Notes under the pieces: model-generated | What the model was told of the DNA's origin: nothing | What the model saw: the letters and a program-made list of their open reading frames with translations, nothing else | The model's database searches: none | Translations under genes and position numbers: made by a program | Assembly: GCA_008632985.1 (NCBI GenBank) | Contig: QPGO01000263.1 | Span: 61,916-81,915 of the forward strand | DNA from: Psammoneis japonica | Taxonomy: Eukaryota | Direction: 5' to 3' | DNA: 20,000 nucleotides | In this document: positions 853-18,085 of the stretch, one piece after another | Layout: every line of letters starts with the position of its first letter | Position numbering within the stretch: the stretch's first letter is position 1

Positions 853-3276
853 CTAATTCTTTGCATGTGGGTTCACGGGTTTTTTCGGACTAGTTCCAGA
901 AGCTTTGGATACAACCTTTTTCACAAACCCTGCCAAGACGCTCGTTCGCTGCTCGCCGATGGTTGACATGTTCTGATTCTTCTTGTACGCTATAACTCGA
1001 GCACCTAGACCTATGAAGGTAGGCTGTGCTCTTCCCTTCTTCTTGTTATCCAGGGGGCTCTTCATGCCAGCGTCTTCTTCCATCTTTCTCATTTTTTGCA
1101 GGCAAGTGTTTTGCACGGCGTAACAAACATTGTGGAATTCGACGGATGCATGGTCATGAATGCGTGTCGTATGCCACTGGTCTTCCGTCATGACGTGTTC
1201 TAGGAGCTCCATAGCTGCTTTAAACTTCTGTGGCTCTGCTTCACTGTTTGGAAACTTGAGGTGCAAAAGCCGCTCCTTGGATGACGAAGAAAGGTGTCCA
1301 TGCTGCTTGAAGAAACTTAGGCATACATGCAGAGAGATTTTTGCGCCTGTACTGTTTACCAAGCCATCCACTTGCTCCTGCAATGTCAGTTTCTTTTTCT
1401 TTTTGTTTGAAAACTTCTTACTCACAACTCCGGCCGAGAACAGTGTCGCGACAGCGGGAGGTCGTTGCTTTCGCGTGGAGGCCGTGACAGGCTGAGTCGC
1501 AGTGGCTGACTCGTCAGAATCCACACGACGTCGAGAAGCAGCCGGCGCGTCACCATCATCAGCAGCAGTAGCATCAGCATCTGGTGGGCTTGCAGCATAG
1601 GCAGCCACATTGTTGTTTTGAGTGGAGCCGGCGTTTTCATCAATAACGTTGCACTCGATGCCGCCGTCTCGATTGGATATTTTTTCGTCCGCAAAATCCG
1701 TCGTGCTATCTTCCTCCTCCGATGATAGGAGTTCAATATTCCTTTTCTTACTGGACTGATTGGCCTCAAGCTGAGCCATCTCCAAGTTGCGAATCGCGTG
1801 GGCTTGCTCGGAAAGCTCGGTACGTTGTGCATCACACACTGATAATACACGAGACAGTAGCTCATTCTGCTGCTTTATCTGTAAAGCAAGGTTGATGTCA
1901 CTTGAAAGATCCGGGTTGCGGTCTTGAAAGCTAGCGTCTATTTTCTTTCCCCAGATCCGAAGCACTTGTGAGGTGTCAGCCGTGTCACCATCACGAATCT
2001 TCGCTTCTGCTGCAGCACGCTCCAACGTGTACACGATTTGATGGTTTTGACGAAGCTCCTTCGAAACTTCAGCGTGATGCCGAATCATACTAGCCGTGCA
2101 AGAACGCAAGAAGGGACGCAGCTCCCCTCCTTTCAGAAATTGAGCAAGAGAGTCAGAGATCATATACAATTTTTCAATGAGACGTTCAACATCATCTTGT
2201 ACATGGCTCCCAAGGCATTCCAAGTTTGGAGCAAATTTCTTGCCGGCAGTATCATCCCAGCCCATCATCGCGTTTGCCGCTGGAAGAGTGAGCTGCGGTG
2301 TAATTCGTTTGTAAGTCTTGCCATTGGCAGCTCCGGGCGCCCATCCAACTCGAGCGTCCGCTTCTTCAACTGACACTCCTCGATGCGAATTCAAGAATGT
2401 AGCCATACCAACTCGAATAGACTTAGAAGAATAATCGTTCTGTAGAACCGGGTTGACCTTGCTTCGAACAATAGACGTCAACTTAGCGGCAACATGCTTG
2501 TCGCTCACGCTCCACAAGTCTGGAAAAGTGCACTTGTGGAGCTCCTTCTCCATGCTGTCTGGACGATAGAGACCTTTCTCACAAGAATAGAAACACGCGA
2601 AAGCATGGTAGAGATCAAAGAGATAAGACTTTTTGTTTGGTGGGAAGAGGAGTCCACACAAATCCACAGTCTTCGGCTCACACCACGTTGCTTCCAAATT
2701 CTCATAAAATAAATCCCAGAACCATTCATCATACCGTTGATACCTCACTTCCCCTCCACGTCCAGCAGCCATAGCACCCATCAAAATCCAGCAACGCTGC
2801 TGAAGAGGGCCATTGTTCATCATTGGATAATTGCATTGCAGAACAAGAGCAAGAAGCAACGTCTCGATGTCGTTTGCGAATGCACCGTTCTCGCGTCTCA
2901 ACATTGAATTTCTGTCAGACGTAAGAATAGTATTTCGCTGCTTGGCTCGAACATATTCTGAAGACACGTTTGGAACCAGGGGCAAAGTCCTTTTGTCAGA
3001 ATGCTCCATGCTAAGGAGGTTGGCTTTATCAGTGGCCTTTGCCACATCTTTGAACAGAGGCTTGTGCCACTTGTCCTCGTCTTCCCAGTCAGGGTGCTTG
3101 GGGAACTTCATTTTTAGCGCTTCTTTGACCTTTCCAAAAATTCGCTGCTTTCCGTCAATTCCTACTAGCCCGTTGGAGGGATTGTCATGCCGACAGATGG
3201 GCTCATCCGACAAGAACTTGCTGAAGCGCATCATAAGTGTCCTGAGGTGGTATCCATCCACATGACGTTCCTCCAA
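853..3276 (-). CDS. Tyrosine recombinase (Crypton-like transposase), 5' end disrupted
   Basis: Catalytic motifs in YR order: AAGRGGE (R1), EPKT (K), YSSKSIRVG (HxxR box with K for H), RVGW (H/W), KTY (candidate Tyr nucleophile), followed by a coiled-coil/low-complexity C-terminus. The ORF has no ATG start: the frame continues upstream as FDAFQDKKQDKPFHG and joins APSTISGDKSAIKR through a frameshift near 3322, with in-frame stops further upstream. Confidence 0.75.
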   Translation of the reverse strand: MEERHVDGYHLRTLMMRFSKFLSDEPICRHDNPSNGLVGIDGKQRIFGKVKEALKMKFPKHPDWEDEDKWHKPLFKDVAKATDKANLLSMEHSDKRTLPLVPNVSSEYVRAKQRNTILTSDRNSMLRRENGAFANDIETLLLALVLQCNYPMMNNGPLQQRCWILMGAMAAGRGGEVRYQRYDEWFWDLFYENLEATWCEPKTVDLCGLLFPPNKKSYLFDLYHAFACFYSCEKGLYRPDSMEKELHKCTFPDLWSVSDKHVAAKLTSIVRSKVNPVLQNDYSSKSIRVGMATFLNSHRGVSVEEADARVGWAPGAANGKTYKRITPQLTLPAANAMMGWDDTAGKKFAPNLECLGSHVQDDVERLIEKLYMISDSLAQFLKGGELRPFLRSCTASMIRHHAEVSKELRQNHQIVYTLERAAAEAKIRDGDTADTSQVLRIWGKKIDASFQDRNPDLSSDINLALQIKQQNELLSRVLSVCDAQRTELSEQAHAIRNLEMAQLEANQSSKKRNIELLSSEEEDSTTDFADEKISNRDGGIECNVIDENAGSTQNNNVAAYAASPPDADATAADDGDAPAASRRRVDSDESATATQPVTASTRKQRPPAVATLFSAGVVSKKFSNKKKKKLTLQEQVDGLVNSTGAKISLHVCLSFFKQHGHLSSSSKERLLHLKFPNSEAEPQKFKAAMELLEHVMTEDQWHTTRIHDHASVEFHNVCYAVQNTCLQKMRKMEEDAGMKSPLDNKKKGRAQPTFIGLGARVIAYKKNQNMSTIGEQRTSVLAGFVKKVVSKASGTSPKKPVNPHAKN

Positions 3277-3626
3277 TCCGTGAAACGGCTTGTCTTGTTT
3301 TTTGTCTTGAAACGCGTCAAACGTTTGATTGCAGACTTATCGCCACTTATGGTAGAAGGGGCCTAGACGCCTTCATGATTGGCGCCTCAAGGGTCGAAGT
3401 GGGCATGCTGCACGGCTGCTCTGTTGTTGCGGGTGGCTTCTGTGACAGCTGTGTGGCTGCGTCTGCTTTTTTGTGAGACGATATCTCCTCCGTGCCGTGT
3501 CTCTAGTCTCGAACTTTAGCACGGTATCGCAGAAGTCTTGCGGGTGGTGGTGAATCTGATGATGTAAAAATTCTGGCGCGTTTCAAGGTTATGTGTGTAT
3601 ACAGACATGTGATGTTATATTTACAT

Positions 3627-3667
3627 CAACTTTCAGAGAACTTTCGGGTTACTTCTTCTGAAAGTTG
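3627..3667. repeat. Perfect 11-bp inverted repeat caactttcaga-N19-tctgaaagttg
   Basis: Read directly; arms at 3627-3637 and 3657-3667. Confidence 0.8.
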
Positions 3668-3854
3668 CCAAATCTATTCCGGAAAGATTCTTCCTTGTTT
3701 GTGTCGTGCGTGACCGTCGCCGCGATTTTTTCGGTGTAGCTTGTAGAATTAATACCATGATTTTCGTATGTAGATCATTCGTGGATCATGGTACTTTCAA
3801 AATTATTACCAATTCCTACGTACCGGTACACTGTACGTCCTACTACTTCTACTC

Positions 3855-3881
3855 TAGCTACAGTAGCTACTACTGTAGCTA
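3855..3881. repeat. 12-bp stem hairpin tagctacagtag-cta-ctactgtagcta within a CTA/TAG-rich patch
   Basis: Read directly. Confidence 0.8.
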
Positions 3882-4075
3882 CTGGTACCCGGCGGCCTCT
3901 CCTGGCGAAGATTCATAATATTCAGCATAGATATATATTTTGGTCGTCGGAATCGAATATCCAGGCTTTATCGATCTAAAATCCAAAATTCTTTCATGAT
4001 TGACTTTCATCTTTCATGTTGTGGGAGCGAGAATGTTGCGGCACTGTATGACTGTGATTGAATGAACGATGCACC

Positions 4076-4550
4076 ATGGATGCCGACTTCACATCATCCA
4101 CGATGTCGACCTCATCAGGGGCGCACGTCTGTGATGGTGGCAAGTGGCAACACTGCAGCAACGATGTCACAATTGGTTGGCTTTGTCGTTCCGGGTGGGC
4201 AAGTTCGCACCGACTTTTCAAAAGCTGATCTGTCAGGAGCAAAGTTCACCCTGACGCTCACATGCCCTGGAGATTTCCCAGCCCCCATGTCTTCTGTGTC
4301 TGATGTGGTGTGGTTTCTGTTGCCGGGAGCACTGTTGCCACCTCAGCACGGAGTTCTGTGTTGCATTGGCAGTTGGCTGCCGCACCTGGAACAGCACAGG
4401 GTGGTGACATGGGATTTGAATTGCTTCGAGCTCTCACACTGCTCAGACCATCTGTGGTGCCTTTTGCACTGGATGGGCTCAGAATGAACAGGTGCAGAGT
4501 CTTGGGTCACCTGGCAACAACGTGTCATTGCAACCTTGGGGCTTTCAGTC
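4076..4550 (+). pseudogene. Hikeshi/OPI10-family gene, frameshifted 5' fragment
   Basis: Across frameshifts: GFVVPGGQVRTDFSKAD..KFTLTL..VSDVVWFLLPG..LPPQHGVL[C]/WQL..GFELLRALTLLRPS/AF[C]TGW/VIATLGLSV. This follows the Hikeshi N-terminal domain pattern (recognised from memory of the family). No C-terminal domain follows. Confidence 0.7.
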
Positions 4551-5891
4551 ATTGGCTCAAGCAGAAATTCTCTCCATTCAATGTTCAGAAATTCCAGCAG
4601 ATGGAAGACAGACAGTCATTTTACCACCAGCAGCCAGCAGGCATGCACGGGTGGTCTCCGTTGCAATCCAATGTGTGACGATTTGTTGGCCACCATGGGC
4701 ATTGACAGTGACTGTGTTCATTGACAAGTGACAAATGGTGCAGCAGCTTGGACTTTACAGCATTCACTTGGATGCCATGTCACCGCCTAAGATGCTGCTA
4801 AGCTTCAAGTGCCATCCTCAAGCTTCCAGGTCAGAAGGCACACGCACCCTGTTTTGCCAAAAGATTGAAGCTCAATGTCAACAAAGCCGAACTTGGTTTT
4901 GGCAGACATGAGTGTGAAGCAATGTGTCAAGGGGCCTTCCAATCATCTTCATGAGGTTCTGAGGGCTTGCTGTGTTAGAAAAATCAAGGTGAGAAAACCA
5001 TGCCACAGTGAACTTGTTGGAGAAAATGACTGTCCTCATCTCTCACGTTTTGCAACATTGTCTTTTTGGTTGGCTGAAATTCATCATGTTGATGACAGCG
5101 GTGAGCATTTAAGGCTGGAAGTGTCTGGCATGACATTGCCAACACGATGACAGCTGCAAAAAAGGCAACTGCCTGCACACTCATTTGAGTGGGAATGTTG
5201 CTGGGTCTGGTGCACAGCATGTGTTGAAAAAGGCAGGAGCAGGGTTGGGTGATGGCCTCAGTGCTGTGACAGGGGCTCTGGGACAAGGTGTTGAAAATGC
5301 AACAGACAGATTGGGAGCTGGATCAGGTGGTTTGGGGGTCTGCAATGTTGTTGCTGGGGGGTGGGACACAGTGTCGGCAACAAAGTTAAAAGCAGTGAGT
5401 TGCTTGACGTGCCTCAATCTTCATGATCAGTTGATTCAACAACAGCTCATGCTCACAAACTTGTCACATCTACAGTTGGGACAGTGAACCCAGAAGGAAC
5501 AGCCAAAGCAACCCAGCATTGCCAAAGGAACAGCAAGTGCTGAAGCTGTGGATTGATCTTTGCACCATCCAAGCCACTCTCCACCTTGAAAATGCCCTTG
5601 ACAGATTGACTTTGTCCCCTCACAGACTAGCCACAAAATGAGAGAATCCAAAACTCAGCATGGATTCCTTCTTGTCATTTGCGGGACTTGCTGTTCCCTC
5701 CCCCAGTGGTTGGAATGATCAGAAACCCAGCAGCACTTCACAAAAGATCCAGCATTGTGCAAAAGATCTAAAGGTTCACTTCAACTGCAGCACACTGCAT
5801 CAATGCTCTTGCTGTCTCTCCCACTCTCCTGTGCTGGTGCCAGCACTTAATTTTCCATGTTGTGCTTGCTTCATCATCAACTGTGACAAAC

Positions 5892-7093
5892 ATGAGTGTT
5901 GATGAGGTTTCTTCTGAGCCAATGCCAAAGCACAAGAGAAACAAAAACATCTTTGAGCTTGACCTTTGGATCGACCCCGACACCAGAAAGAGTGTCTTCA
6001 CTGATGATCAATTGGACAATGCACTCTCCAAAATTGCATGTGCAGAGTGGGGGTGTCCTCCTGCACAAGAGACAAACTGTTTTGGAAATTCAAGAGGTGG
6101 GAGCTGAGGAAACTGAAGGGTGGGCAATGATGAGTGGCACCCTGTGCATTCAATTGTCAAAGCAAGTGCAGCTGCCACATGGAGATTGTTCAAAATCAAC
6201 CAAACAACAATCAAATGTTCAAGGGATTGATGCACTCTCCAAAACTGCACTTGCAGAGTGGGGGTGTCCTCCTGTGCAGGAGACAAACTGTTTTGGAAAT
6301 TCAAGAGGTGGGAGCTGAGGAAACTGAAGGGCAGGCAATGACGAGTGGTGCATTGTGTGTTTTGTTGTCAAAGCAAGTGCAGCAATTGCCATGTGGAGAT
6401 TGTTCAAAACCAACCAAACAAGAATCAAATGTTCAAAGGATTGATGCCTCATGCAGACAAAATGTGTCTTTCCACAAGAGCCAACCAGCAAAACAACAAG
6501 TCTTGCAAGTCTTTGGCTCACTGTTGCATGCTGAGTTGCATCTGAGTCAATGGCTCTGAAGGGGCCTTTGACAGAATTGGAATCTTGACAAAGATGCACA
6601 GAGGAAGGCCAAGAGGATGCTTTCAAAACAAGCCAAGCAAGTGTTGATGTTGCACCTCACCAATGGAGGGAGTGGAGCAGGCTGGGAATGCATTGTGGAT
6701 GCCCTTGAGGGATGCAAGCATGACTCCATGAATCCTGATGTGCTCAACAAGCACACAACACACCTTTGTGGGGGTGAGCATTTTTGCAACAGCAACACAG
6801 AGTGATTTTATTGTGCTTTTTCTACAGAGAATCTTCTGCTGAATGGACATTGTCAACTTGCATCAGGGCAGGATTTCTTTTTTGCTGTCAACACGTTGTG
6901 CCACCACACACATGAAAAGGCTGGTTTAATGCCAATCAAGGTTGTCAGTTTGAATCAAGAGGGCCACATTGTTGTTTGCAGTGTTGCATCAAATGAAGAT
7001 GAGGAAACCCACAAACTCATCTTTTGGAGTGTCAAAAAGGCAGCAGAAGATGTTGTTCATTGATGTGTTGCTCATGGGGACAGGTGCACTTGG
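5892..7093 (+). pseudogene. Mutator/MULE transposase N-terminal half (WRKY/FAR1-like Zn finger plus first catalytic Asp), decayed
   Basis: C-x-F-x2-QSKC..EIVQ..PH Zn-finger-like segment, then FYCAFSTENLLLNG[HC]Q..FFFAV[N]T[LCHH]T.EKAGLMPIKVVSLNQEGHIVV[CS]V.SNEDEETHKLIF. This reverts to the MULE pattern VDTSY..GL.PI.V...NQ.GH.V.YGV if only CG and TA are restored. D1 codon at 6890-6892. Confidence 0.7.
6020..6444 (+). repeat. Tandem duplication, two units of 211 and 214 bp
   Basis: 6020-6230 and 6231-6444 align end to end (about 90% identical, one 3-nt indel). Confidence 0.95.
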
Positions 7094-7210
7094 GACACAG
7101 CATGATGTACAATGTCGCACAATGTGGCATTGTGCAACACATTCAATTTTGGACCACCCAGTGGGTTGCATTCAATTTTGCACTCCAACCACAAATCTGT
7201 TGGTCAACCT

Positions 7211-8470
7211 TCATGAGTTGATTGTCAGGGCTCCTCTGCACCTTGCAGCCTTTGAATGACCCCGGCCCAATGCTTGGAATGGTCCTTTGCATTCAGTGCA
7301 GGAGGGAAACCCAATGCTGTTCCTTGGCACTTTGCTTTGGCACATGAATGGCAGCACCATGCATGATGCTGGTGTGCATCTGGCATGTGCAAGACATGAG
7401 ACCTGTGTTGATGCCTCATTCCAACAGCTCTTCTGCTGGCATCACTGGCAGCCCATTGTGTGTGAGCATCACATGAAGCTCTTTTGTTGCAGTTCAAGTC
7501 ATGTTGTCTGATGGCAGGATTGGCGTGTGGAATGACTTGATCCAATCTACAACCATTTCACCACTCATGTGTTGAACTTGGTGATGGTTGTTCAAGGGTT
7601 GCGGAGCACCAGTGTCTCACATTGATGCAGCCATCAATTTGTCATGAGATGCTTTTTGCATGCATCAATGTCATCCATGTCAACAACAAGGTCAACCAGA
7701 TCATCAATGCAGTGCTGCCCCCCAACAATGTGTGACCCTCACGGCACATCCACAAGGCCACAGACTCTTGGAATGGCCGCTGCAAAGAAAGAAAAGTGAA
7801 CCCCATTGTTTTCACAATTCATGAGAGTCATGTGCACTTGTTCATAAAAATCCCAATTGTGGATCTCTGGCTTCATGCTTCCACAGAGCAGTGAGTCCTC
7901 TTTGCTGCAGCCGGACAGCAATTTGCAAAGTTTTGGCATGAACGGAGCAACACTTCACTTTTGGCAATTCAAAGCATTCCTGTCATGACAGTTGCTGCTT
8001 TCAACTGCATTGTTGTCATTCAGAATTCCTCCCAAGAGTGGGTTGAAAACATTCCTCTTGATGTGTGTTGACATTTTGTCTCCCCAGCTTTCTGCCCATT
8101 TTTCTGCTGCAATGGGCTCCTTGTGCTTGGTTTTCCATGATTCAAGCATCATTTTCTGCATGGTCAGCACCAGCAAAACGGTGGGGCAAGCTTTGGTGAA
8201 CAACTTGAATTCAACCTGGAGATCACTTCATTTGCTGGTGTCCCTGAAGGGCTTTCTGTTGTTGTCAAACTGCCAGCCAGAAGCATGGAATGAACAAATG
8301 CTGTGAATCCCATCCACTTCCTCTGACCCCCCCACACTGGTCAAGGCATTTGTGGTGACAAGAGCCACATCCTTTTGAGTGACAAGGATGCCTCTGAGCT
8401 CCCACTTGAACTCATCAACATCAGCTCACAGAGGCCCAGCACGCATGTGAGGACTTCATGTGTGACATCG
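7211..8470 (-). pseudogene. Mutator/MULE transposase C-terminal half (D2, CxxH, E, SWIM), decayed
   Basis: In order on the minus strand: GILVTQKDVALVTTNAL (D2 at 8369-8371), ICSFH (CxxH at 8285-8296), NDNNAVESSN (E near 8000), SWIM finger CTC..QHHAWCCH (about 7345-7392, with a frameshift), and a basic KAAR..GAL tail. Confidence 0.75.
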
Positions 8471-8479
8471 CCCAGTGGC

Positions 8480-9085
8480 TGGCATGAGATGAGGACAGAT
8501 GCGGAGCAGGGGTGGAACTGAGTCATGCAGGGAGGGCAAGGAATGGGATTGGGGTTGGGGCCAGCAAGATGGGACTGCAGTTTTGTGGAGCAATGGGTGA
8601 GATGGTCAGCAAGCAATTTGGCTGTTGCAAAGCTGAGGCTTTGAAGGCCTCATTGTGATGGAGTTGAGGTGTGGTGGCGGGTCAAGCTGAAATGTGCAGT
8701 GGATGTGTTTTTCCAACAATTGGCGGTGGCAGTGGGGAGGATGGCAGACAGGGAGCAACTGTTGTGCACAGGTGCATGTGGCATGGGCAGCAGGACATTG
8801 GAAGGAGGATTTGGTGTTCCAAGCATGTGCAGGTGGGGCAGGGACAGGGTGTTGGTGATCGGCTCCAAAAAGGAGGCTGTGTGCAAAGCAGCCGTGGGCT
8901 CCAAAGTGATCGATGGTGAAAGGGATGAAGCAAATGCTGGCATTGTTGAGGGAGGATGCAATGGTGGTTTCATGTGCTGGGTTTTGTGTGTCCCGTTGAA
9001 CTTCCGTTTGGTGCTCACATGGTGTGCCTCAGCACAAGGGTTGAGAGTGAGGGCAGGCAAGCCAGGAGCAGGCAATGGAGGAGAA
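8480..9085 (-). mobile_element. Decayed 3' fragment of a second CRE-like non-LTR retrotransposon
   Basis: Translates PAPGLP..AEAHHVSTKRKFNG / LNNASICFIPFTIDHFGAHGCFAHSLLFG / SAILPTA..W..F..T..TSTPSQ*GLQSL. This is collinear with PPPGLP..TEAHHSSARLKFLG / LDNNGIFLLPFTVDHLGGLGCFAHRLLFG / SAILPSADSAW..FGSTYRTATPSQWATQTL in the 15387-18059 ORF. Confidence 0.85.
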
Positions 9086-10202
9086 GAAGTTGCTGTGCTC
9101 ACGAACAATCCCACTTTAGCTTCTGAAGGCAATGTCAAGGCAAATGGCGGGGATGCCTTCGGCACTCCTCTTGTTGCCCGTAGCCACAGCACAAACAATG
9201 ACACACCAAGCACCGGAGCATCGCCCACAGGAGTGCGAATGTCTTCTACGCCCATGCATGCTGCCGGAGTGGAATGCAGAAAGCTCACGTGGTTCTTCCA
9301 ACCGCCACCCATGAATGTAAACTAAAAAAAACATTGCAGTCTAGATTGCGTTTGAAGAAGTCTAGTCCTAATGCATGTCATGACGAAGTCCATTGCCGAT
9401 CCAATGCCACCGTCAACGACTGCCAGATTGTCATCGCGATTCCCTCCGTCCCTCGGGATGCGCAGCGCCACAATGGAGGTGTGGCAGCAGGCTCTTGGCA
9501 AACCTGTCTCGTCGTCCAACAAGATTTTAAAGACAATGCCGCACCAATGAACAAGGTAGCTAAGGAACTCAGCACACTGTCCCATTTCCAAAGACAGCAT
9601 GGCCGGAACAACGGATGAAGGCAAAGACTCCGTAAAGGATGATGTCGCTCAGGGTCACAGTCCATGATCCGTAACCAGAAGCCAGGTGATTCCTAAAAAT
9701 AAGAACGACATACGGAATTTCAACCATTCAGTCACTTGATCCAATTTTCGACATGTATGATGTAGCACTAGACTGGCGGTCTCTGGACGTACAGGTAAGC
9801 GAGCTTGCATCTCACCAAACGATAGAGGTAACCGCACGTCCCGTTCGCGAGAACAAGAATGCGGCTTAAGATACGGTCCTCGAAACAGTAGAGACCGGGG
9901 ATCCATCGACTCACAAGAGTGAGTTTTTGGAGACAGAGTTGATTGCAGAAAGTCCGCAGTACAACATTATTGTTCCCACACCGTCCTTTGAACGACTACA
10001 AGATGGCAGAAATAGACATTGATCCTAATGCGACCATCACGAATGAACAGCGTTGCTAAGAATTCTCTGATTTTTGTCGATCGATCGTGTTGGTGATGAA
10101 TAATTGACAGGAATGATGCGGCTCCAAAACATCAACGAGATGCCCATTGTCACTTCAGCAGATGCCATTACATGTTGCTAATGATCGCTAAGCATCTATT
10201 GG

Positions 10203-12389
10203 TCATAGAGGCTGTCCATCCTGATTGATTAAAAAACGATCGGGACGATAAGGCTTCAAAATGTCCCACGAAATGCCTTTTGTCACTTCAACAGATGCCA
10301 ATGCACAGAGAAGAGGAGCCAAAGTCACTCCAGAGTGAGTCACAATTCCGTAGAGCCCCCGTTTAATCCAACCAACAGACGGAAGCCCATCCTTTGGGAT
10401 GGGCCTGTTAGCCTCTTGCAGCCATGAATGTGACAGATCGTGCATGATACGAGGAGTCAACGCCGAGGCGCCTTGTAACAATGAATCTTCCACCGCGACT
10501 TCGGCGCTTCGCTTTGTAGTGGGCGACCCTCCAGTTTCAAGAACTCCACCCCCTACTGCTATGATCCCATCTCGTCTTTGTAGCACGTGTGCTTTCCTCA
10601 CAGTGTCCACTAGTATTCGATTAAGTCGTGGGCTCTGAGATTTTGAAGAGGATTTCGTCCTGCAAAATACGCTTTGACCCGGTCGATGTAAAAGAGGCAG
10701 CCCACCAAAGGCAGGGTTGGAAGAACCAGCACCAGCTGCGACAACGACTACATCGCAGGAATTTTCGCTGGTTGCGTTTGAGGTGATGGAACGTGTCACA
10801 ACACCGGACACACACCGTCTTTTATTGTCTCGTATCAAATCAACTACTTGTTCGTTTGCAATAAACGTTACTCCCAAGTCTGTCGCTGCTTTGCGCAGCT
10901 CCTTGACAGCAACAGATGGATTGACGCTGCCCTCTTGTGGATAAAAGTAAACTTGCCTTGAAGATGAAAACTCCACCTGTGGTTCAAGCTCTTTGATGCG
11001 AGCTGCTGAAAGCGGTCCCTCCACATGGTACCCACCGTTATGATTGGGTTTTGTGTCAAACGCGACCAAGGAGCCACTCCATACTGGTAGTGGAGTCAAT
11101 GTTCCGTCATATTTCCACGACCGCAGCCCTAGCTGATTAAGTAACTCGTATGATTGAGGAATCTTGCCATTCGCATTGATCCACGCCCATGATGCTGCGG
11201 TGGTGGCTCCGACATTTTCTTTTGGAGGCAGACGGTCATACACTGTCACATTAACTCCCTGTCGCGCAAGATTCAGAGCCATGCAACTGCCAATTATACC
11301 AGATCCAATGACTACGACATGCTGGCAAGGAATAACAGGTTGTTTGTCCTTTACACCCCAAACAGTGAGACCCACGTCGTTCAGTTCTAGCATGGTTCTT
11401 TCAGCCGTGGTTGCAGGACTAGTAGCTTGGGATGGGATAGTTGATACTCCGACTCTTTTTAGCAGTTCCTCATGAAAAGGCTGAGGAAATTTGTTTCCTA
11501 GGCGCAGCCATACACCATTCCGCTCCTGGACTTCACCAAGCGCAAGCTCCTTGCTCGGGATAGCATTGGGCATTGACAAAGAGTACTTTTCCATGTATTT
11601 CAGTGTTTCAGAAAAACTAGAACTCTCTCCCGTTAGCTCCTGCAAGACAGGTGATAACTCTTGCACCAATTTTTCTAGTTCCTTTCGATACACTTTGTGT
11701 ACGTGCGAAACCGAAGTTGGTGGACTAGAGCGATGACAGAATAGCCACATACAGGCCGCCCACAAGAGCTTGCGTGCTGCAGCTACTCGAACTTGACCCC
11801 AATCATTTGATATTTTTGTCGCAACTCCATGTTCTTCCAAGATTTGTTGAATTATGGACGAGTGCTTCCCATAGATAAGTGTCGGAGGCGACAAAGGTGT
11901 CGTAACAGGATCCCCGCCTACCTCTAACACTCCATAATGTGGAATCACGAACGTGCAATTTTCAAAAGAGTCAAGTGGCAAGCCGTTTCCCACAAAAGCC
12001 AAGTCGGTTTGTCTTTTTGGTATCGTGTCATGTAGCACACTCGACCACGCATGAGACGGAGTTGTCACAAGAATGGGTGTGCCGTTCGGAGACAAACAGC
12101 CCGGAGCCACTCCTCTTGGAACTGCCACTAGTATCGAATTGTTTTGGTTGATGCTACCATTTTTCAGGAAAAAAGAACCCATGCGCCCACTCGCACCGAC
12201 GATTTCTCCAGAAACTTTGCATTCAAAGTCATTATGATCGTCAAGCTTGGAAGAAGTTGACGAGAGGCCACGGTTCGACCGACGACATGAACGGGGAGAT
12301 GCAATAGCTTGTAAACTGTCGGCAATTACCAACACGAAAGTCCACAACAATACATTGGCCAGTTGCTGTCGATGTACTATTCTTTGCAT
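10203..12389 (-). CDS. Fusion protein: signal/transit peptide + At1g16080-like Rossmann (ketopantoate-reductase-like fold) domain + DAO-family FAD-dependent oxidoreductase
   Basis: 728-aa intact ORF with a hydrophobic N-terminus (LLWTFVLVIADS/LQ). Domain 1: IVGASGRMG, DLAFVGNG, YGKHS, KLLWAA, ERNGVW. Domain 2: VVIGSGIIG, GATTAASWAWIN, VVVAAG, RPIPKDGLP, HSGVTLAP. Confidence 0.85.
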   Translation of the reverse strand: MQRIVHRQQLANVLLWTFVLVIADSLQAIASPRSCRRSNRGLSSTSSKLDDHNDFECKVSGEIVGASGRMGSFFLKNGSINQNNSILVAVPRGVAPGCLSPNGTPILVTTPSHAWSSVLHDTIPKRQTDLAFVGNGLPLDSFENCTFVIPHYGVLEVGGDPVTTPLSPPTLIYGKHSSIIQQILEEHGVATKISNDWGQVRVAAARKLLWAACMWLFCHRSSPPTSVSHVHKVYRKELEKLVQELSPVLQELTGESSSFSETLKYMEKYSLSMPNAIPSKELALGEVQERNGVWLRLGNKFPQPFHEELLKRVGVSTIPSQATSPATTAERTMLELNDVGLTVWGVKDKQPVIPCQHVVVIGSGIIGSCMALNLARQGVNVTVYDRLPPKENVGATTAASWAWINANGKIPQSYELLNQLGLRSWKYDGTLTPLPVWSGSLVAFDTKPNHNGGYHVEGPLSAARIKELEPQVEFSSSRQVYFYPQEGSVNPSVAVKELRKAATDLGVTFIANEQVVDLIRDNKRRCVSGVVTRSITSNATSENSCDVVVVAAGAGSSNPAFGGLPLLHRPGQSVFCRTKSSSKSQSPRLNRILVDTVRKAHVLQRRDGIIAVGGGVLETGGSPTTKRSAEVAVEDSLLQGASALTPRIMHDLSHSWLQEANRPIPKDGLPSVGWIKRGLYGIVTHSGVTLAPLLCALASVEVTKGISWDILKPYRPDRFLINQDGQPL

Positions 12390-12806
12390 TGTCTTCAGCG
12401 ATTCCTCAAAGGACTTAATTCCTCATCATCTTGGTGGCTGATGCGCGATCTTTTTCTGTTGCTCTCTCGCTCTCGCGCTCGCCGTTTTTGATTTTGCAAA
12501 ACTGCCGCCAACCGGGAGACGGATAGGCGGTAACCTACGTATGAGGTCAGTACTTTTGCTGTATGTAGAATCAATACTACGCCTACATGCAAGATTCATT
12601 ATGATATGTACAGATTTGTATAAACCTATTTCAGCAGGACTCAGTTCGCGTCAAGTTCGCGTGTATCGACTGATTTGAGATTGACGATCGACTGACATTG
12701 GGCTTCACGTACGCTGGAACACCGAACGCATAGTTGATTGCCATATTCTTGTTTTGTTGCTTGCGACAAAGAGAGAAACCAAGAGAACTTATCGAAGAAT
12801 AGAACC

Positions 12807-14632
12807 ATGGCGTCTGCTAAACAGGGTGCATATGCCCAAGTCTCAGAGGAGGCCTCCGAAAAAACGGCGGTACCCATCAGTGCGGCTGAACCGATTGGTG
12901 AAAAAGTTGAACGTTTGGAGGTGACGCAGACGTGGGCCAGAGGAGAAGTCCAAGAAGATGGATACAAGGATGTCTACTTTGCAGTGGCATTCTATATACA
13001 ATTAGTGGCAATGATGGCGACCGCGTTTTTGTTTGCGATCGGAGCCATTGAAACTTCTTCTGACAGCGGTGACGGCGATTGGAACCGGAGGCTATCCGAT
13101 TACGTGTCCGGAAACTACAACGAGAATAGCAACAGCTACAATGACAACAACAACTCTAACGCCGGTGGAGAGGACGATGACATTTCTGACGAAGACTTTG
13201 GCAAGCTGCTAAGTGTTATTGCCCTATCTCTTGTGCTTTCGCCCGTCTTGGCTGTGCTTGCACTCGGCCTCCTCCGTGAGCATGCCCGTTTGCTAATCAA
13301 GGCTTCGTTGTGGTTCAATATCGGATTATCGCTTGTGCTTTGTTTGCTTTCTCTGGTGACTGCTCCACTTGCGGCCTTTCTCTACGGAATTCTCACGCTG
13401 ATTCTGGTGTGTTATGCAAAGGCTGTCTGGCACCGCATCCCATATGCCGCTTCCAACTTGCGATGTGCCGTGACAGCCGTCAAGGCCAACCTGGGAATTG
13501 CCCTCCTTTCCTTTGGTGCAGTCCCCTTCAATATTGGCTGGTTCTTTCTATGGGGCTACACCCTCTACAAGACGATGCAAACCGACTTTATGAAGGATCA
13601 AGTGGAAGAAGAACCGAGCTCATTCAATGCCAACGATGACTTCAACAGCGACAGTTCGACGGAAACGCTGTCTGCCGCGGGGACTTGCGTTATCATGCTC
13701 TTCTTGCTATCATTGTACTGGACGTCTGAAGTCATAAAGGTACGTCCCAATTTTGAGGTTGTTATGTCTAACATTTGATTGGGTAATCTCAATTGTGTTC
13801 TTGTATTTCGTCTCGTCACGACAGAACACCATTCATACAACAATTGCCGGTGTCATTGGCACGTGGTGGTTCCTCCCTGAAGAGGCTTCGTCGTTTTGCT
13901 CGAAACATCTAACCGACTCGCTTGCTAGGTCTACAACATATTCGTTTGGATCCATTTGCTTTGGAAGTTTGATTGTTGCTATTCTAGAGGTTCTCAAGAA
14001 CTCGCTTCGCAATGCCCGGAACAACCGCAACAGCCTGCTGCGATGCATTGTCATTTGCATACTTGCATGGATTGAAAGATTGGTGGAGTACTTTAACAAA
14101 TGGGCCTTTGTTTACGTGGGTTTGTATGGCTACAGCTACTTGGAGGCCGGGAAAAATGTGATTACGTTGTTTCGAGCACGCGGTTGGTCCGCGATTATTA
14201 ACGACAACTTGGTTTACAGAATGCTCGGAATGATGTGCCTGGCAATTGGGCTTATTACGGGTTTGATTGGCTTTTTGTTTGCGCTCACACTGGGTCTTGC
14301 TAGTGACGGGCTAGTCGCTGCTGCGGTAATGTGAGTGGCGTGTTGCTCATTGTTGTTGCATTGGTCTTTTGCGCTTGCTCACCTTAGATCCTTTTCCGTT
14401 TGTTTGTTTTGCAAGTCTGTCCATACTGACTGGACTCATCACGTCGGGGATCATGATGACCGCTGTTGGAAGCTCTGTTGACTCCATCATTGTTCTGTAT
14501 TGTGAGGCTCCGGCCGAGTTTGAAGAAAACCATCCAGATCTGCACCGGGAGATGCAAGCAACATGGAGTGAAGCCTGGTCTAGTGTTATCACAGCGGAAG
14601 CAGAGGTCGTCCCATCGGCTAACGTGGTCTAG
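12807..14632 (+). CDS. Choline transporter-like (CTL/SLC44/PNS1 family) membrane protein, 3 exons: 12807-13739, 13825-14330, 14416-14632
   Basis: Motifs YKDVYFAVAF, RIPYAASNL, YWTSEVIKN, AGVIGTWW, SFGSICFGSLIVA, YFNKWAFVYVGLYGYSY, GWSAIINDNL. Introns 13740-13824 (GTACGT..ACAG) and 14331-14415 (GTGAGT..AAG), 85 nt each, restore the frame. Confidence 0.93.
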
Positions 14633-14949: not shown

Positions 14950-17900
14950 TTGGACGGTCGGTCGAATCTGAGCTGCTTGGTTGGTCCCATACGCCGCGCC
15001 TCTCCTCATCTTCCCCCGACTTTTCTGCTTCCACCTATTGCTACTCCGCTCAAGTCTGCGCCGACGAAGATAACTTTCACTCGGCCTACTCCAAGCTCAC
15101 CTCTGCGCTTCCTGTTGCTGCCGTTACTCCTGAGCGCCTTCCTACCATCCTCAAGCTCTACCCTCCTCGCCTGCACCCCTCCGACCTACCTAATCCTCCT
15201 TCAACTCGCTCGGCCTCCTCCCTTCATAATGAGCCTATTGAGCTCTCCTCCGATGCTCTTCTTTCCGCTCTCTCCAAATGTAAGCCTGGGACTGCTGCCG
15301 GTGTCTTTGCTGATTCTACCGACCTTTTCAAGTCCTACGCCCTCTATTCTACCAAAACCCCAACAGGAGTTGCTCAACGCCCCTGCTTGTCATCCTTTCA
15401 TGAGCTTGTCCTTCTTCTGCTCCATGGCTCCATTCCTCCCTCCGTCCATTCCTTATTTGCTTCGAACTACTTTGTCGCTCTGCATAAAGATGCCAGCGAC
15501 CTCAACAAGCTTCGCCCCATTGGCGTCGGTGCTGCTCTTCGTCGCATTGCCGGCTCCGTCGTCATGACTCTCTTTGGTTCTGCATTTACCGAATGCCTCC
15601 TCCCAGATGGCCAATTTGGCATTGGTGTCAAAGGTGGCCTCGATTATCTCATTCACTCTGCTCTTGCCAACATTGAACGATGTCTTTCTTCTGCCGACTC
15701 TACCAAGGCTCTTCTTCTTCTTGACCTCGTCAACATGTTCAACGAAGCATCCCGAGATGCCTGTCGACACGTTCTCACCTCCACCCCTGCCTTCCATCCT
15801 CTGCTTCCTTTTTTTGACCTTCCACGTCAAAGTTCCAATACATGTTGGTGTCGCCGACCCGATTCTTCCTGGGGCTCCTTTCTTCAAGAAGAGGGATTTG
15901 CCCAAGGATGCCCTCTCGGCCCTGTTTTCGCCAGCCCAGTCCTCTCTCTGGTTCTTCGTCCGATTAACCAAGAGCTTCAAGAACATGTCCCTGGCCATTC
16001 CTCTGTCTCAGTTGGCTCCTACATTGATGATGCTCATGCTTTCCTTCCCCATTCCGTGCTCCCATGGTTCCTTGAACGCTTCTCCGCCCTCGGTGCCCCC
16101 TGCGGAATCTCCCTCAACCTCCGTAAAACCAAGATCCTCACCTCCATTGCCGGTGTTAGCCCCATCCCTGCTCTTCCCCCTTCCCGTGCCGATTCTCTCC
16201 GTGCTGCACTTTCCTTCTTAAACCCCACCAATGACCCCTCTCACAACCCCGAACTCACCTCTGGTGTTCGCTTCCTTGGACAGCCCCTCGGCTCCCACGA
16301 CTTCGCCACCTCCTTCCTTTCCGACACTTCCTCTACTCTCTCCGACAAAGTTGACATGCTTCTCACCCGTCTCCATGACAAACAAACCCAGGCTCAACTC
16401 TTCAAGCACTGTTTTGTTCCATCCTCTGCTCACCTCCTTGGAGCTGACTTCTGCTGCAACTTCGACCCTGACAATCCTCCCGACCCCTTTCTCTGGACCT
16501 CTCCGTTTCAAGATTTCCTCCTCACCGTTGCTCACCGCTTTCTACACTGCGTCACTTCCTTCGCCGCTCCTTTTCCCGACCATTCTATTGCCATCACTTT
16601 CCTTCCTGCCTCCTCAGGCGGGTTTGGTCTCCGGGACCCAACAGCTGCCGCCATTCCTTCCTTCTTGGTGTCGCTTCTCCGCTCGTTCCGCTTTGCTTCG
16701 CACGGTGTCAGCCTGCCATCTGGCGCTTCTGTTTCCCTTCCGCGCTGCTTTCGGCTCTCCCTGTCTTCCTGGTCCAACCCTTGCTCTTCCCTGCGACTCT
16801 ACATGCTCTTCCGCCGTCATGCTCCCGTTCTGGCTTCCGCCTCTGCCCTTTCCTCTTCTTCCCTGGCTGCCCTGGTTAAATCGGCCACCCTCCCCGGCCT
16901 GGCCCATCGTCTCTGCCATGAACATCAGCAACAAGCAGTGACCTCCATCCTTGCTAACTCATCTTACGACGTACAATCTTCGCTCCCTTCATTGCTGTCT
17001 CCGCTTACAAGCCTCCCTCTTCATTCCTTCTCTCATCGCTTTCCAAGCTCCCGCCTTTCTTCGGACGCCTGCGCTGTTGCCGCCCTTCGTAAGCTTCGTC
17101 TCCCCATCCTTCCTCCGTCCCTTGTCAACACTCCCTGTCCCTGTGGCCATGCCATTCTGGATGCCTGTGGTGATCATGCCTTTTCTTGCCGCCGTGCTCA
17201 CAAGTCCAAGCTTTCCAATGGTCTCCGTGACACTGTTTTCATCCTAGCCCAAACTTTGGGTCCTCTTGCAGAGTTCTGTCGATCCCCCAATGACGTTCAT
17301 CTTGAACCCACCAACCTGCTCCCCACCCGCCCGCTCCTCCGTCCCGCCGATGTCGGCATTTCAATCCCCCCTCCCGCCTCCCTTTCCGCTCCCTCCCGCC
17401 ACCACTACATTGCAGTGGACGTCACCGTCCCTCAAGCTTCCTCTCGCCCTCCTCCAGGTCTGCCTGCCCCCTCTTCTCCTGTCTTAACTGAGGCACACCA
17501 CTCGAGCGCGAGATTGAAGTTTCTTGGCCCCTCTACTTCCTCTGCCGATGGATCCCTTGTTGTTTCTTCGCTTGACAACAATGGCATCTTCCTGCTCCCC
17601 TTCACTGTAGATCACCTTGGTGGTCTCGGCTGCTTTGCCCACCGCTTGCTCTTTGGTTCTACATCCCCCTCCGTCTGCTCTCAGCCCAAGCCACCCTGGT
17701 CCTCTTCCTCTGACCTTCGTCACTCCGATGCCTCCTACTCCGCCTTCCTCTACGCTTTATCGTCTCCGTCTGCAATTCTTCCCTCTGCTGACTCCGCATG
17801 GCGTCGCCTGTCCGCCGATCGCTTTGGAAGCACCTACCGTACAGCCACCCCATCCCAGTGGGCCACCCAAACTCTTGGCTACAACGTTGTTCTTCACCTT

Positions 17901-18085
17901 TCTACGCACATCCTCCGATTCACCTCCTCTCTCCCTGCCCCCTCCTCACCCATACCTTCCACAAAACGCCCTTCGTCTTGCGTCCTTCGACCCTTTTACT
18001 CTACCGTCCCTACAGCTACCTCCGTGCCTCCCTCTGCTGTTACCTTCCGCTCTACATAGGCTTCCTTAATCTTCTATTTTAAATA
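14950..18085 (+). mobile_element. 5'-truncated CRE-clade (RLE-type) non-LTR retrotransposon
   Basis: Abrupt switch to a strongly C/T-rich sense strand. One reading frame is open from 14916 to 18059 with no ATG at its start. No clear TSD or poly(A) tail was seen, so ends are approximate. Confidence 0.85.
15387..18059 (+). CDS. Reverse transcriptase + CCHC knuckle + restriction-like endonuclease (partial; frame extends upstream to about 14916)
   Basis: RT motifs KLRPIGVG..LRR, QFGIG..GG, LDLVNMFN, QGCPLGP, YIDD, LNLRKT, RFLGQP, LP...GGFG. C-terminal CPCG..D..GDHAFSC, RPAD and VDVTV are typical of CRE/SLACS/MoTeR-like elements. Confidence 0.9.
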   Translation: MSSFHELVLLLLHGSIPPSVHSLFASNYFVALHKDASDLNKLRPIGVGAALRRIAGSVVMTLFGSAFTECLLPDGQFGIGVKGGLDYLIHSALANIERCLSSADSTKALLLLDLVNMFNEASRDACRHVLTSTPAFHPLLPFFDLPRQSSNTCWCRRPDSSWGSFLQEEGFAQGCPLGPVFASPVLSLVLRPINQELQEHVPGHSSVSVGSYIDDAHAFLPHSVLPWFLERFSALGAPCGISLNLRKTKILTSIAGVSPIPALPPSRADSLRAALSFLNPTNDPSHNPELTSGVRFLGQPLGSHDFATSFLSDTSSTLSDKVDMLLTRLHDKQTQAQLFKHCFVPSSAHLLGADFCCNFDPDNPPDPFLWTSPFQDFLLTVAHRFLHCVTSFAAPFPDHSIAITFLPASSGGFGLRDPTAAAIPSFLVSLLRSFRFASHGVSLPSGASVSLPRCFRLSLSSWSNPCSSLRLYMLFRRHAPVLASASALSSSSLAALVKSATLPGLAHRLCHEHQQQAVTSILANSSYDVQSSLPSLLSPLTSLPLHSFSHRFPSSRLSSDACAVAALRKLRLPILPPSLVNTPCPCGHAILDACGDHAFSCRRAHKSKLSNGLRDTVFILAQTLGPLAEFCRSPNDVHLEPTNLLPTRPLLRPADVGISIPPPASLSAPSRHHYIAVDVTVPQASSRPPPGLPAPSSPVLTEAHHSSARLKFLGPSTSSADGSLVVSSLDNNGIFLLPFTVDHLGGLGCFAHRLLFGSTSPSVCSQPKPPWSSSSDLRHSDASYSAFLYALSSPSAILPSADSAWRRLSADRFGSTYRTATPSQWATQTLGYNVVLHLSTHILRFTSSLPAPSSPIPSTKRPSSCVLRPFYSTVPTATSVPPSAVTFRST

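Follow-up and report, generated by a model that had tools for sequence, protein, structure and literature searches.

Near-complete loss of TpA, separate from CpG decay, in an island of dead mobile elements beside a diatom-like gene

A 20,000-nucleotide (nt) stretch of contig QPGO01000263.1 (listed under Psammoneis japonica), referred to here as the window, raises the question of how about 5 kb of mobile-element debris came to be nearly free of the TpA dinucleotide when the DNA on both sides is not. The first-pass annotation of the window had noted, at positions 4050-9115, fewer than 20 TA in about 5 kb, TA-free runs of about 1.0 and 1.3 kb, depleted CG, an excess of TG and CA and fairly sharp borders, and had ascribed them to a TpA-specific mutator converting A:T to G:C in repeated or silenced DNA, beside ordinary CpG decay. 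Our counts agreed with every part of this compositional description. We also found that the TpA and CpG losses are independent of each other and that the changes arose in place, whereas a dependence on repeats is not shown by the window.

Composition and content of the tract

Between 4050 and 9115 (5066 nt) we counted 17 TA, with an observed/expected ratio (o/e) of 0.05 against 0.55 and 0.58 in the flanks, and 53 CG, with an o/e of 0.18 against 0.93 and 0.85, together with an excess of CA (n = 564, o/e 1.96) and TG (n = 606, o/e 1.76). Expressed as shares, TA made up 0.34% of the tract and 3.65% of the flanks, CG 1.05% and 5.22%, CA 11.1% and 7.0%, and TG 12.0% and 7.6%, respectively. The sum of these four pyrimidine-purine steps was conserved (24.5% in the tract and 23.5% in the flanks), as would be expected from a conversion of TA and CG by transitions. 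The disturbance was limited to these four steps, all remaining dinucleotide classes lying within about 2 percentage points of the flanks; AA+TT was not depleted (15.4% against 14.6%) and AG+CT was not enriched (12.1% against 13.1%). At the flank frequency, 17 or fewer TA have a binomial probability of 3e-58, and in the right flank each of the 59 windows of this length contained between 137 and 211 TA.

The signature ran through five consecutive 1-kb windows (4001-9000), with rho_TpA of 0.00-0.10 and rho_CpA+TpG of 1.78-2.02, and the ratios TpA/ApT and (CpA+TpG)/(ApC+GpT) were 0.055 and 1.99 in the tract against 0.62 and 1.30 in the flanks. Three long TA-free runs were measured, of 1272 nt (7845-9117), 961 nt (5848-6809) and 575 nt (4047-4622). 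The left border is sharp, as 10 TA fall within 3916-4047 and the next one is found only at 4622, while on the right the last TA-free run ends at 9117. The 17 residual TA, all within 4622-7845, are mostly preceded by a pyrimidine (15 of 17 are YTA, where the flanks have 51%; p = 0.0014), and 9 of the 17 are YTAR, against 18.5% in the flanks. An extended RTA target motif was considered and rejected, since the 9 polarised TA losses at 4047-4549, with contexts read by eye, split into 4 with a purine and 5 with a pyrimidine before the T and thus showed no purine preference.

The tract is an island of dead, unrelated mobile-element debris between two host genes. It opens with a repeated segment (4047-4549; TA 0, CG 17), whose start at 4047 is also the left border of the tract and of which a second copy in this sample, a paralogue, has retained TA; except for this paralogue on another contig, the ~1.8 kb of repeat at 4050-5890 is without assigned identity. 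With an open reading frame (ORF) at 4062-4484 as query, a homologue search restricted to proteins of 77-247 residues returned nothing.

The largest recognizable component is a degenerate transposase gene. Its N-terminal half, with frameshifts and TGA stops, was identified at 5892-7081 (+) from HMMER homologues and tblastn, which aligned 5901-7081 (+) with an in-frame ATG just before, at 5892. Inside it lies a tandem duplication (6004-6447, +; direct-repeat families D1 and D2) with units of ~211-214 nt. A C-terminal half of the same transposase family was detected at 7958-8419 (-) by tblastn with residues 369-529 of relative P0036 and 440-590 of relative P0052, and its position on the opposite strand suggests an internal inversion. 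The frame over 6572-7060, used as query in an exhaustive HMMER search, brought up 98 relatives, the best being P0001 (E 4.6e-48, 54% identity). When all six frames of the tract were read through, with X in place of stops, Pfam assigned no family; an NPHP3_N match had an E of 0.036. Pfam MULE matches in the relatives P0001, P0002, P0006 and P0030 (E 0.00014-0.002, 18.9-22.6 bits) fell below the 27.6-bit cut-off, and P0030 and P0038 showed weak matches to the ZSWIM1-3 RNaseH-like domain. These matches suggest that the main element is Mutator-like (MULE), although, being sub-threshold, they leave its family membership open.

At the right end, 8650-9150 (-) holds a hypermutated retroelement fragment related to residues 662-824 of the product of an ORF further along the window (15387-18059); blastn aligned 8865-9072 with 17448-17656 at 64% identity, tblastx agreed, and BLASTP gave an E of 1e-06. 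This retroelement family is high-copy in the sample, its summed word depth at 8882-9088 reaching 1873 where single-copy contigs have ~60.

Terminal inverted repeats were sought in a purine/pyrimidine coding, which is blind to transitions, and were not detected (score 70 against a shuffle mean of 79); the repeat search revealed no inverted repeats at the tract borders, and no relatives of the transposase were found in viral contigs. A Hikeshi lead for the tract, from a weak Pfam Hikeshi-like_N match (E 0.26), was dropped, as the PDB search returned no Hikeshi and the homologue search with the 4062-4484 ORF, over the size range given above, was empty. In low-similarity contigs of sequencing runs X1 and X2, sequence like 5186-5319 was joined (at 5286/5319) to sequence like 9526 onward, ~4.2 kb being skipped; other copies could thus lack the MULE part, the sides of this joint being only 36-49 nt long.

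Direction and mode of the changes

As tyrosine (Tyr) is encoded only by TAY, its replacement by cysteine or histidine corresponds to TAY->TGY or TAY->CAY. We aligned the window copy with 24 of the 98 relatives, picked by eye among the higher-ranked matches covering most of the query. At the 6 columns with a consensus Tyr the residues of the window copy are H, H, H, C, H and C, whereas the 144 pooled cells of the homologues hold Y 117, F 16, H 3 and C 1, no homologue having more than one C or H; the chance probability of C or H at all six columns is ~5e-10. The window copy retains 1 Tyr in the aligned block against 5-13 in the homologues, and the 13 Tyr of P0001 align to C (5), H (4), F (2), Y (1) and L (1). 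The 23 arginines of P0001 align to H (6), R (5), stop (4), Q (3), C (2) and 3 others, and the changes to His, Cys, Gln or stop at 15 of the 23 positions are CGN->CAN/TGN, matching CpG decay. Where a majority residue was held by at least 50% of the homologues (80 columns), the window agreed at 45 and differed at 35. Restoring TA accounted for 10 of these differences and restoring CG for 6, while 19 were accounted for by neither. The motifs that the first-pass annotation had recovered by restoring both dinucleotides (VDTSY, GYRQ and VVYGV) found their counterparts in the homologue consensus, which reads DTSYRYT, NAYRQ and VAYA/IAYGV where the window has NTLCHHT, NGHCQ and VVCSV.

The homologous DNA of the relatives was also examined. 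In all 42 metagenomic loci rho_TpA was 0.19-1.01 (median 0.46) and rho_CpA+TpG 1.14-1.59, against 0.03 and 1.85 in the window copy, and the family is therefore not equally poor in TA; equal poverty was an outcome that the annotation had named as one that would overturn its proposal. On the evidence of these sequences, TA was evidently lost by mutation and is not a native feature of the elements, the protein outgroups settling the direction. The match regions of three environmental relatives (L030, L031 and L032) had rho_TpA of 0.19 and rho_CpA+TpG of 1.48, rather low values of TpA that may be native to these sequences or a milder version of the tract signature.

Mutation acted in place, after the tandem duplication. 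Of the 203 columns shared by the tandem units, 22 disagree, and 10 of the 22 make up 5 CA<->TG double differences, each of which implies one ancestral palindromic TA or CG that was resolved on different strands in different units. The process was strand-symmetric, with TG 606 against CA 564, Tyr->Cys 5 against Tyr->His 4, and no strand clustering (runs test z = -1.0). It was specific to TpA and not to WA (A preceded by A or T), since AA+TT is unchanged.

The CpG loss is a process independent of the TpA loss. In the segment 4050-4550 there are 0 TA and 17 CG (3.4%), while 5891-7100 holds 3 TA and 4 CG, and complete TpA loss in the presence of 17 CG shows that the two losses are separate; moreover, CpG decay alone covers only about half of the CA/TG excess. 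The Tyr columns, the unchanged AA+TT and this segment together uphold the core of the earlier proposal, namely a TpA-specific A:T->G:C mutator beside CpG decay. The process spans unrelated elements and ends within tens of bases of their outer limits, 4047 and ~9117-9150.

The tract is also found in reads. In run X1, a single run from one sample, 93% of the sampled words of the tract were present, and seven of its contigs, with 0-1 differences each, cover 3793-6098, 6302-6632, 6995-7945, 8136-9024 and 9209-9700 among the pieces listed, at depths (55.8-70.9) that are equal inside the tract and in the flank. These observations are consistent with the tract not being an assembly-only artefact. Related contigs numbered 249, of which 51 were at least 99% identical, 29 at 95-99%, 86 at 90-95% and 83 below 90%, and 227 of the 291 places of change among the matches listed were transitions. 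No RNA runs were listed among the holders of tract words.

A proposed mechanism, its alternatives and known systems

We propose that two processes have acted on this mobile-element island. One consists of near-saturating, strand-symmetric A:T->G:C transitions limited to the 5'-TpA-3' step and made in place, in which a change of the top-strand A gives TpG and a change of the bottom-strand A gives CpA; the other is ordinary CpG->TpG/CpA decay, as expected from cytosine methylation. The likeliest mechanism of the TpA changes would be an enzyme that deaminates adenine in DNA, the resulting hypoxanthine being copied as G when the DNA is next replicated, and the target would be a silenced or foreign chromatin domain rather than one element family. 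To this explanation as a whole, with the TpA step probably due to DNA adenine deamination, we assign a probability of about 0.7; the sequences themselves show the signature, its direction, its origin in place after the duplication and its independence from CpG loss, and the enzyme, the targeting rule and a role in defence are what we infer from the pattern.

A full-text literature search found the signature in one 2026 preprint only, on one alga, and nothing of this kind for diatoms. In mutation-accumulation lines of Bigelowiella natans, 231 mutations fell in two integrated viral regions, and 230 of them were A>G or T>C, all of these on TpA, at a rate of ~6e-7 per site per generation (~1000 times background) and in only some of the lines; the preprint proposes an ADAT2-like DNA adenine deaminase and reports that TpA-depleted sequences are enriched in transposase and reverse-transcriptase genes (Mettrop et al., bioRxiv 10.64898/2026.01.13.699255). 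Clusters were defined there by a rho_TpA of at most 0.43 together with a rho_CpA+TpG of 1.52 or more in at least 3 consecutive 1-kb windows, and the tract reaches these thresholds in 5 (4001-9000). The two cases have in common that only TpA->TpG/CpA changes are involved, with local TpA depletion and CpA+TpG enrichment, and that foreign or mobile DNA is the target. They differ in the host, here apparently a diatom relative and not a chlorarachniophyte; in the target, here transposon debris and not a viral insert; and in extent, the tract being near-saturated (rho 0.00-0.10) against 0.45 in their giant-virus insert. CpG depletion co-occurs in the tract, while CpG is mentioned 0 times in the preprint, and diatoms neither; and a de novo rate was measured in B. 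natans, whereas the tract is known from its sequence alone. The annotation's remark that no such system had been characterized in diatoms still agrees with the literature on diatoms, but is outdated in that the signature has since been seen de novo in B. natans.

Several points weigh against our explanation. The paralogue of 4047-4549 (on a 10-kb contig, with 47 differences) yields 13 TA against 1 in the window copy when 36 of the 47 differences are applied; nevertheless, this comparison alone cannot set the direction. We therefore gave up the TA-bearing paralogue as proof, since by our own estimate neutral decay of a TA-free ancestor gives similar numbers (~6 new TA). A 16-class codon-reversion test against P0001 (151 mismatches) gave CG 27, TA 16 and a best mock class of 14 and is thus weakly discriminating, and the strength of the evidence for direction lies in the Tyr columns and not in this test. 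The patterns of the environmental scan contained Tyr, so that hypermutated relatives would be missed by it. No near-identical contig was present among the pieces listed for 6099-6301, 6633-6994, 7946-8135 and 9025-9208, and run X1, whose library type is not on record, is possibly the assembly's own source, which makes the read support a matter of consistency and not independent proof. Lastly, other repeats in the window, at 3500-3900 and in the retroelement ORF, are unaffected. That ORF (15387-18059, +) is intact and encodes 890 aa with a reverse-transcriptase domain (RVT_1, E 1.7e-08). It has 11 Tyr codons, a rho_TpA of 0.38 and a rho_CpA+TpG of 1.23, is not hypermutated, and may belong to the high-copy family as an active retroelement. 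With these repeats spared, a dependence on repeats is not shown, and a domain-based target fits the window better.

Among the alternatives, we consider it unlikely, though not negligibly so, that the targeting of TpA is real and the chemistry different, a modified base at TpA being mispaired or misrepaired to give T:A->C:G. Such a base might be N6-methyladenine or a thymine that a TET/JBP-type enzyme has oxidised, for example to 5-hydroxymethyl- or 5-formyluracil; oxidised thymine is mutagenic. Strand symmetry at a palindromic dinucleotide is what a mark on both strands would leave, and the footprint of CpG methylation co-occurs in the tract, but the sequence cannot separate T-centred from A-centred chemistry, and the only study of the phenomenon proposes an ADAT2-like deaminase, also without proof. 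Pol-eta-type error-prone repair, of which WA (changed to WG) is the motif, or biased T:G mismatch repair in heterochromatin would both yield A:T->G:C transitions. The former, one of the candidates of the first-pass annotation, is disfavoured by an effect limited to TpA with AA+TT not depleted and AG+CT not enriched, and we regard this repair-based reading as extremely improbable. Just as little weight falls on a native composition or selection by which the elements would always have avoided TA and CG. The paralogue at 4047-4549 could, by our own calculation, have gained its TA by decay; still, this view is already contradicted by C or H at 6 of 6 consensus-Tyr columns, by the normal TA of the 42 relatives and by the 43-55 stops in each of the three forward frames of the tract.

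A-to-I editing by an ADAR-like enzyme, acting on double-stranded RNA and fixed when that RNA is reverse-transcribed, would suit the retroelement fragment in the tract, and ADARs prefer a 5' U according to the preprint (bioRxiv 10.64898/2026.01.13.699255). The main component, on the other hand, being a DNA transposon, does not pass through RNA; the changes fall on the two strands equally, with no strand runs, where one-strand A-to-G clusters would be expected; and the changes are uniform across unrelated elements and non-coding DNA and later than a local tandem duplication. We therefore hold this editing to be very improbable. The same low likelihood is given to a sequencing or base-calling artefact, in which heavily modified DNA would have been misread with TA and CG still present. 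The unrecorded library type of the sole holder run, possibly the source sample, would leave room for it, but contigs built from read-derived 31-mers match the listed tract parts with 0-1 differences at flank-like depth, a misread mark on both strands would presumably make the strands disagree rather than yield clean TG/CA, and the B. natans equivalents were called from Illumina data as heritable mutations (bioRxiv 10.64898/2026.01.13.699255).

The proposed TpA-directed adenine deamination beside CpG decay has likenesses to older systems as well. Fungal repeat-induced point mutation (RIP) likewise destroys copies of mobile elements by a sharply bordered, local hypermutation through transitions, but its direction is opposite, as RIP makes TpA from CpA and the indices of the tract (0.055 and 1.99) are the reverse. 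RIP acts on all duplicated copies above a length threshold; the tract does start at a paralogous segment, yet the repeat at 3500-3900 and the ORF at 15387-18059 are unaffected. The decay of methylated CpG in transposons accounts for the CG o/e of 0.18 and for the Arg->Cys/His/Gln/stop changes, but cannot remove TpA, and it has left little trace at 4050-4550, a segment with no TpA remaining. APOBEC (C-to-U) and ADAR (A-to-I) likewise inactivate foreign sequence by context-specific transitions, ADAR with a preference for a 5' U; they act, however, on single-stranded cDNA and double-stranded RNA, respectively, whereas here a DNA transposon was changed on both strands in place.

Neighbouring genes, the host and what the finding means

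The genes in the window are long and nearly intron-free. On the left side, the neighbour of the tract is an 807-aa ORF (853-3276) with no Pfam family, beyond whose low-coordinate end lie three diverged direct repeats (381-793; families D3 and D4) spaced 162-177 nt apart. Immediately left of the tract, 3500-3913 is AT-rich and, from a summed word depth of 297-665 where ~60 is usual, a repeat in the sample; with a normal or high TA (o/e ~1.05) it escaped the process. On the right side, the neighbour is an FAD oxidoreductase gene (10203-12389), followed by a choline-transporter-like gene (12738-14334, +) whose two ORFs (12738-13778 and 13753-14334) overlap and are not in the same frame; the Pfam profile runs across both, and the split is a short intron or a frameshift.

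The FAD oxidoreductase has 69 relatives at E <= 1e-10, and the named ones with E < 1e-50 are all from diatoms: Fragilaria crotonensis (45%), Seminavis robusta (45%) and two proteins of Fistulifera solaris (42% and 39%). The next named matches, from a green alga and bacteria, are below 30%. None of the matches reached 100%, whereas the public proteome of B. natans would be expected among the sequences searched; with the long, nearly intron-free genes, this suggests that the host is a relative of diatoms rather than B. natans. As the named close relatives of this flanking gene are all diatoms, the diatom-like host is probably a second lineage with TpA hypermutation, distant from B. natans.

The phenomenon is thus no longer unknown, although it rests on that one preprint in one species. 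Relative to the preprint, the window adds a probable second lineage, a transposon target, saturation, a TpA loss that is separable from CpG loss and a tract running across unrelated elements. Only tentatively, and with the balance of our judgement on the other side, would we suggest that TpA-directed DNA adenine editing is an old genome-defence pathway common to distant SAR (stramenopile, alveolate and rhizarian) lineages, here diatom relatives and chlorarachniophytes. Such a pathway would be independent of cytosine methylation, aimed at silenced mobile or viral domains and not at repeats, and able to saturate its targets, and its enzyme would be a dinucleotide-specific adenine editor of double-stranded DNA.

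Hypermutation from A:T to G:C at one dinucleotide opposes the usual GC-to-AT mutation bias, and a second case would mean that the process is confined neither to one species nor to viral inserts. As diatoms are transformable, knock-outs could be used to look for the enzyme. A natural TpA-specific editor of adenine in DNA, if true, would be of interest both to genome-defence biology and to base-editing technology, and this unusual scrambling of foreign DNA may be more widespread.

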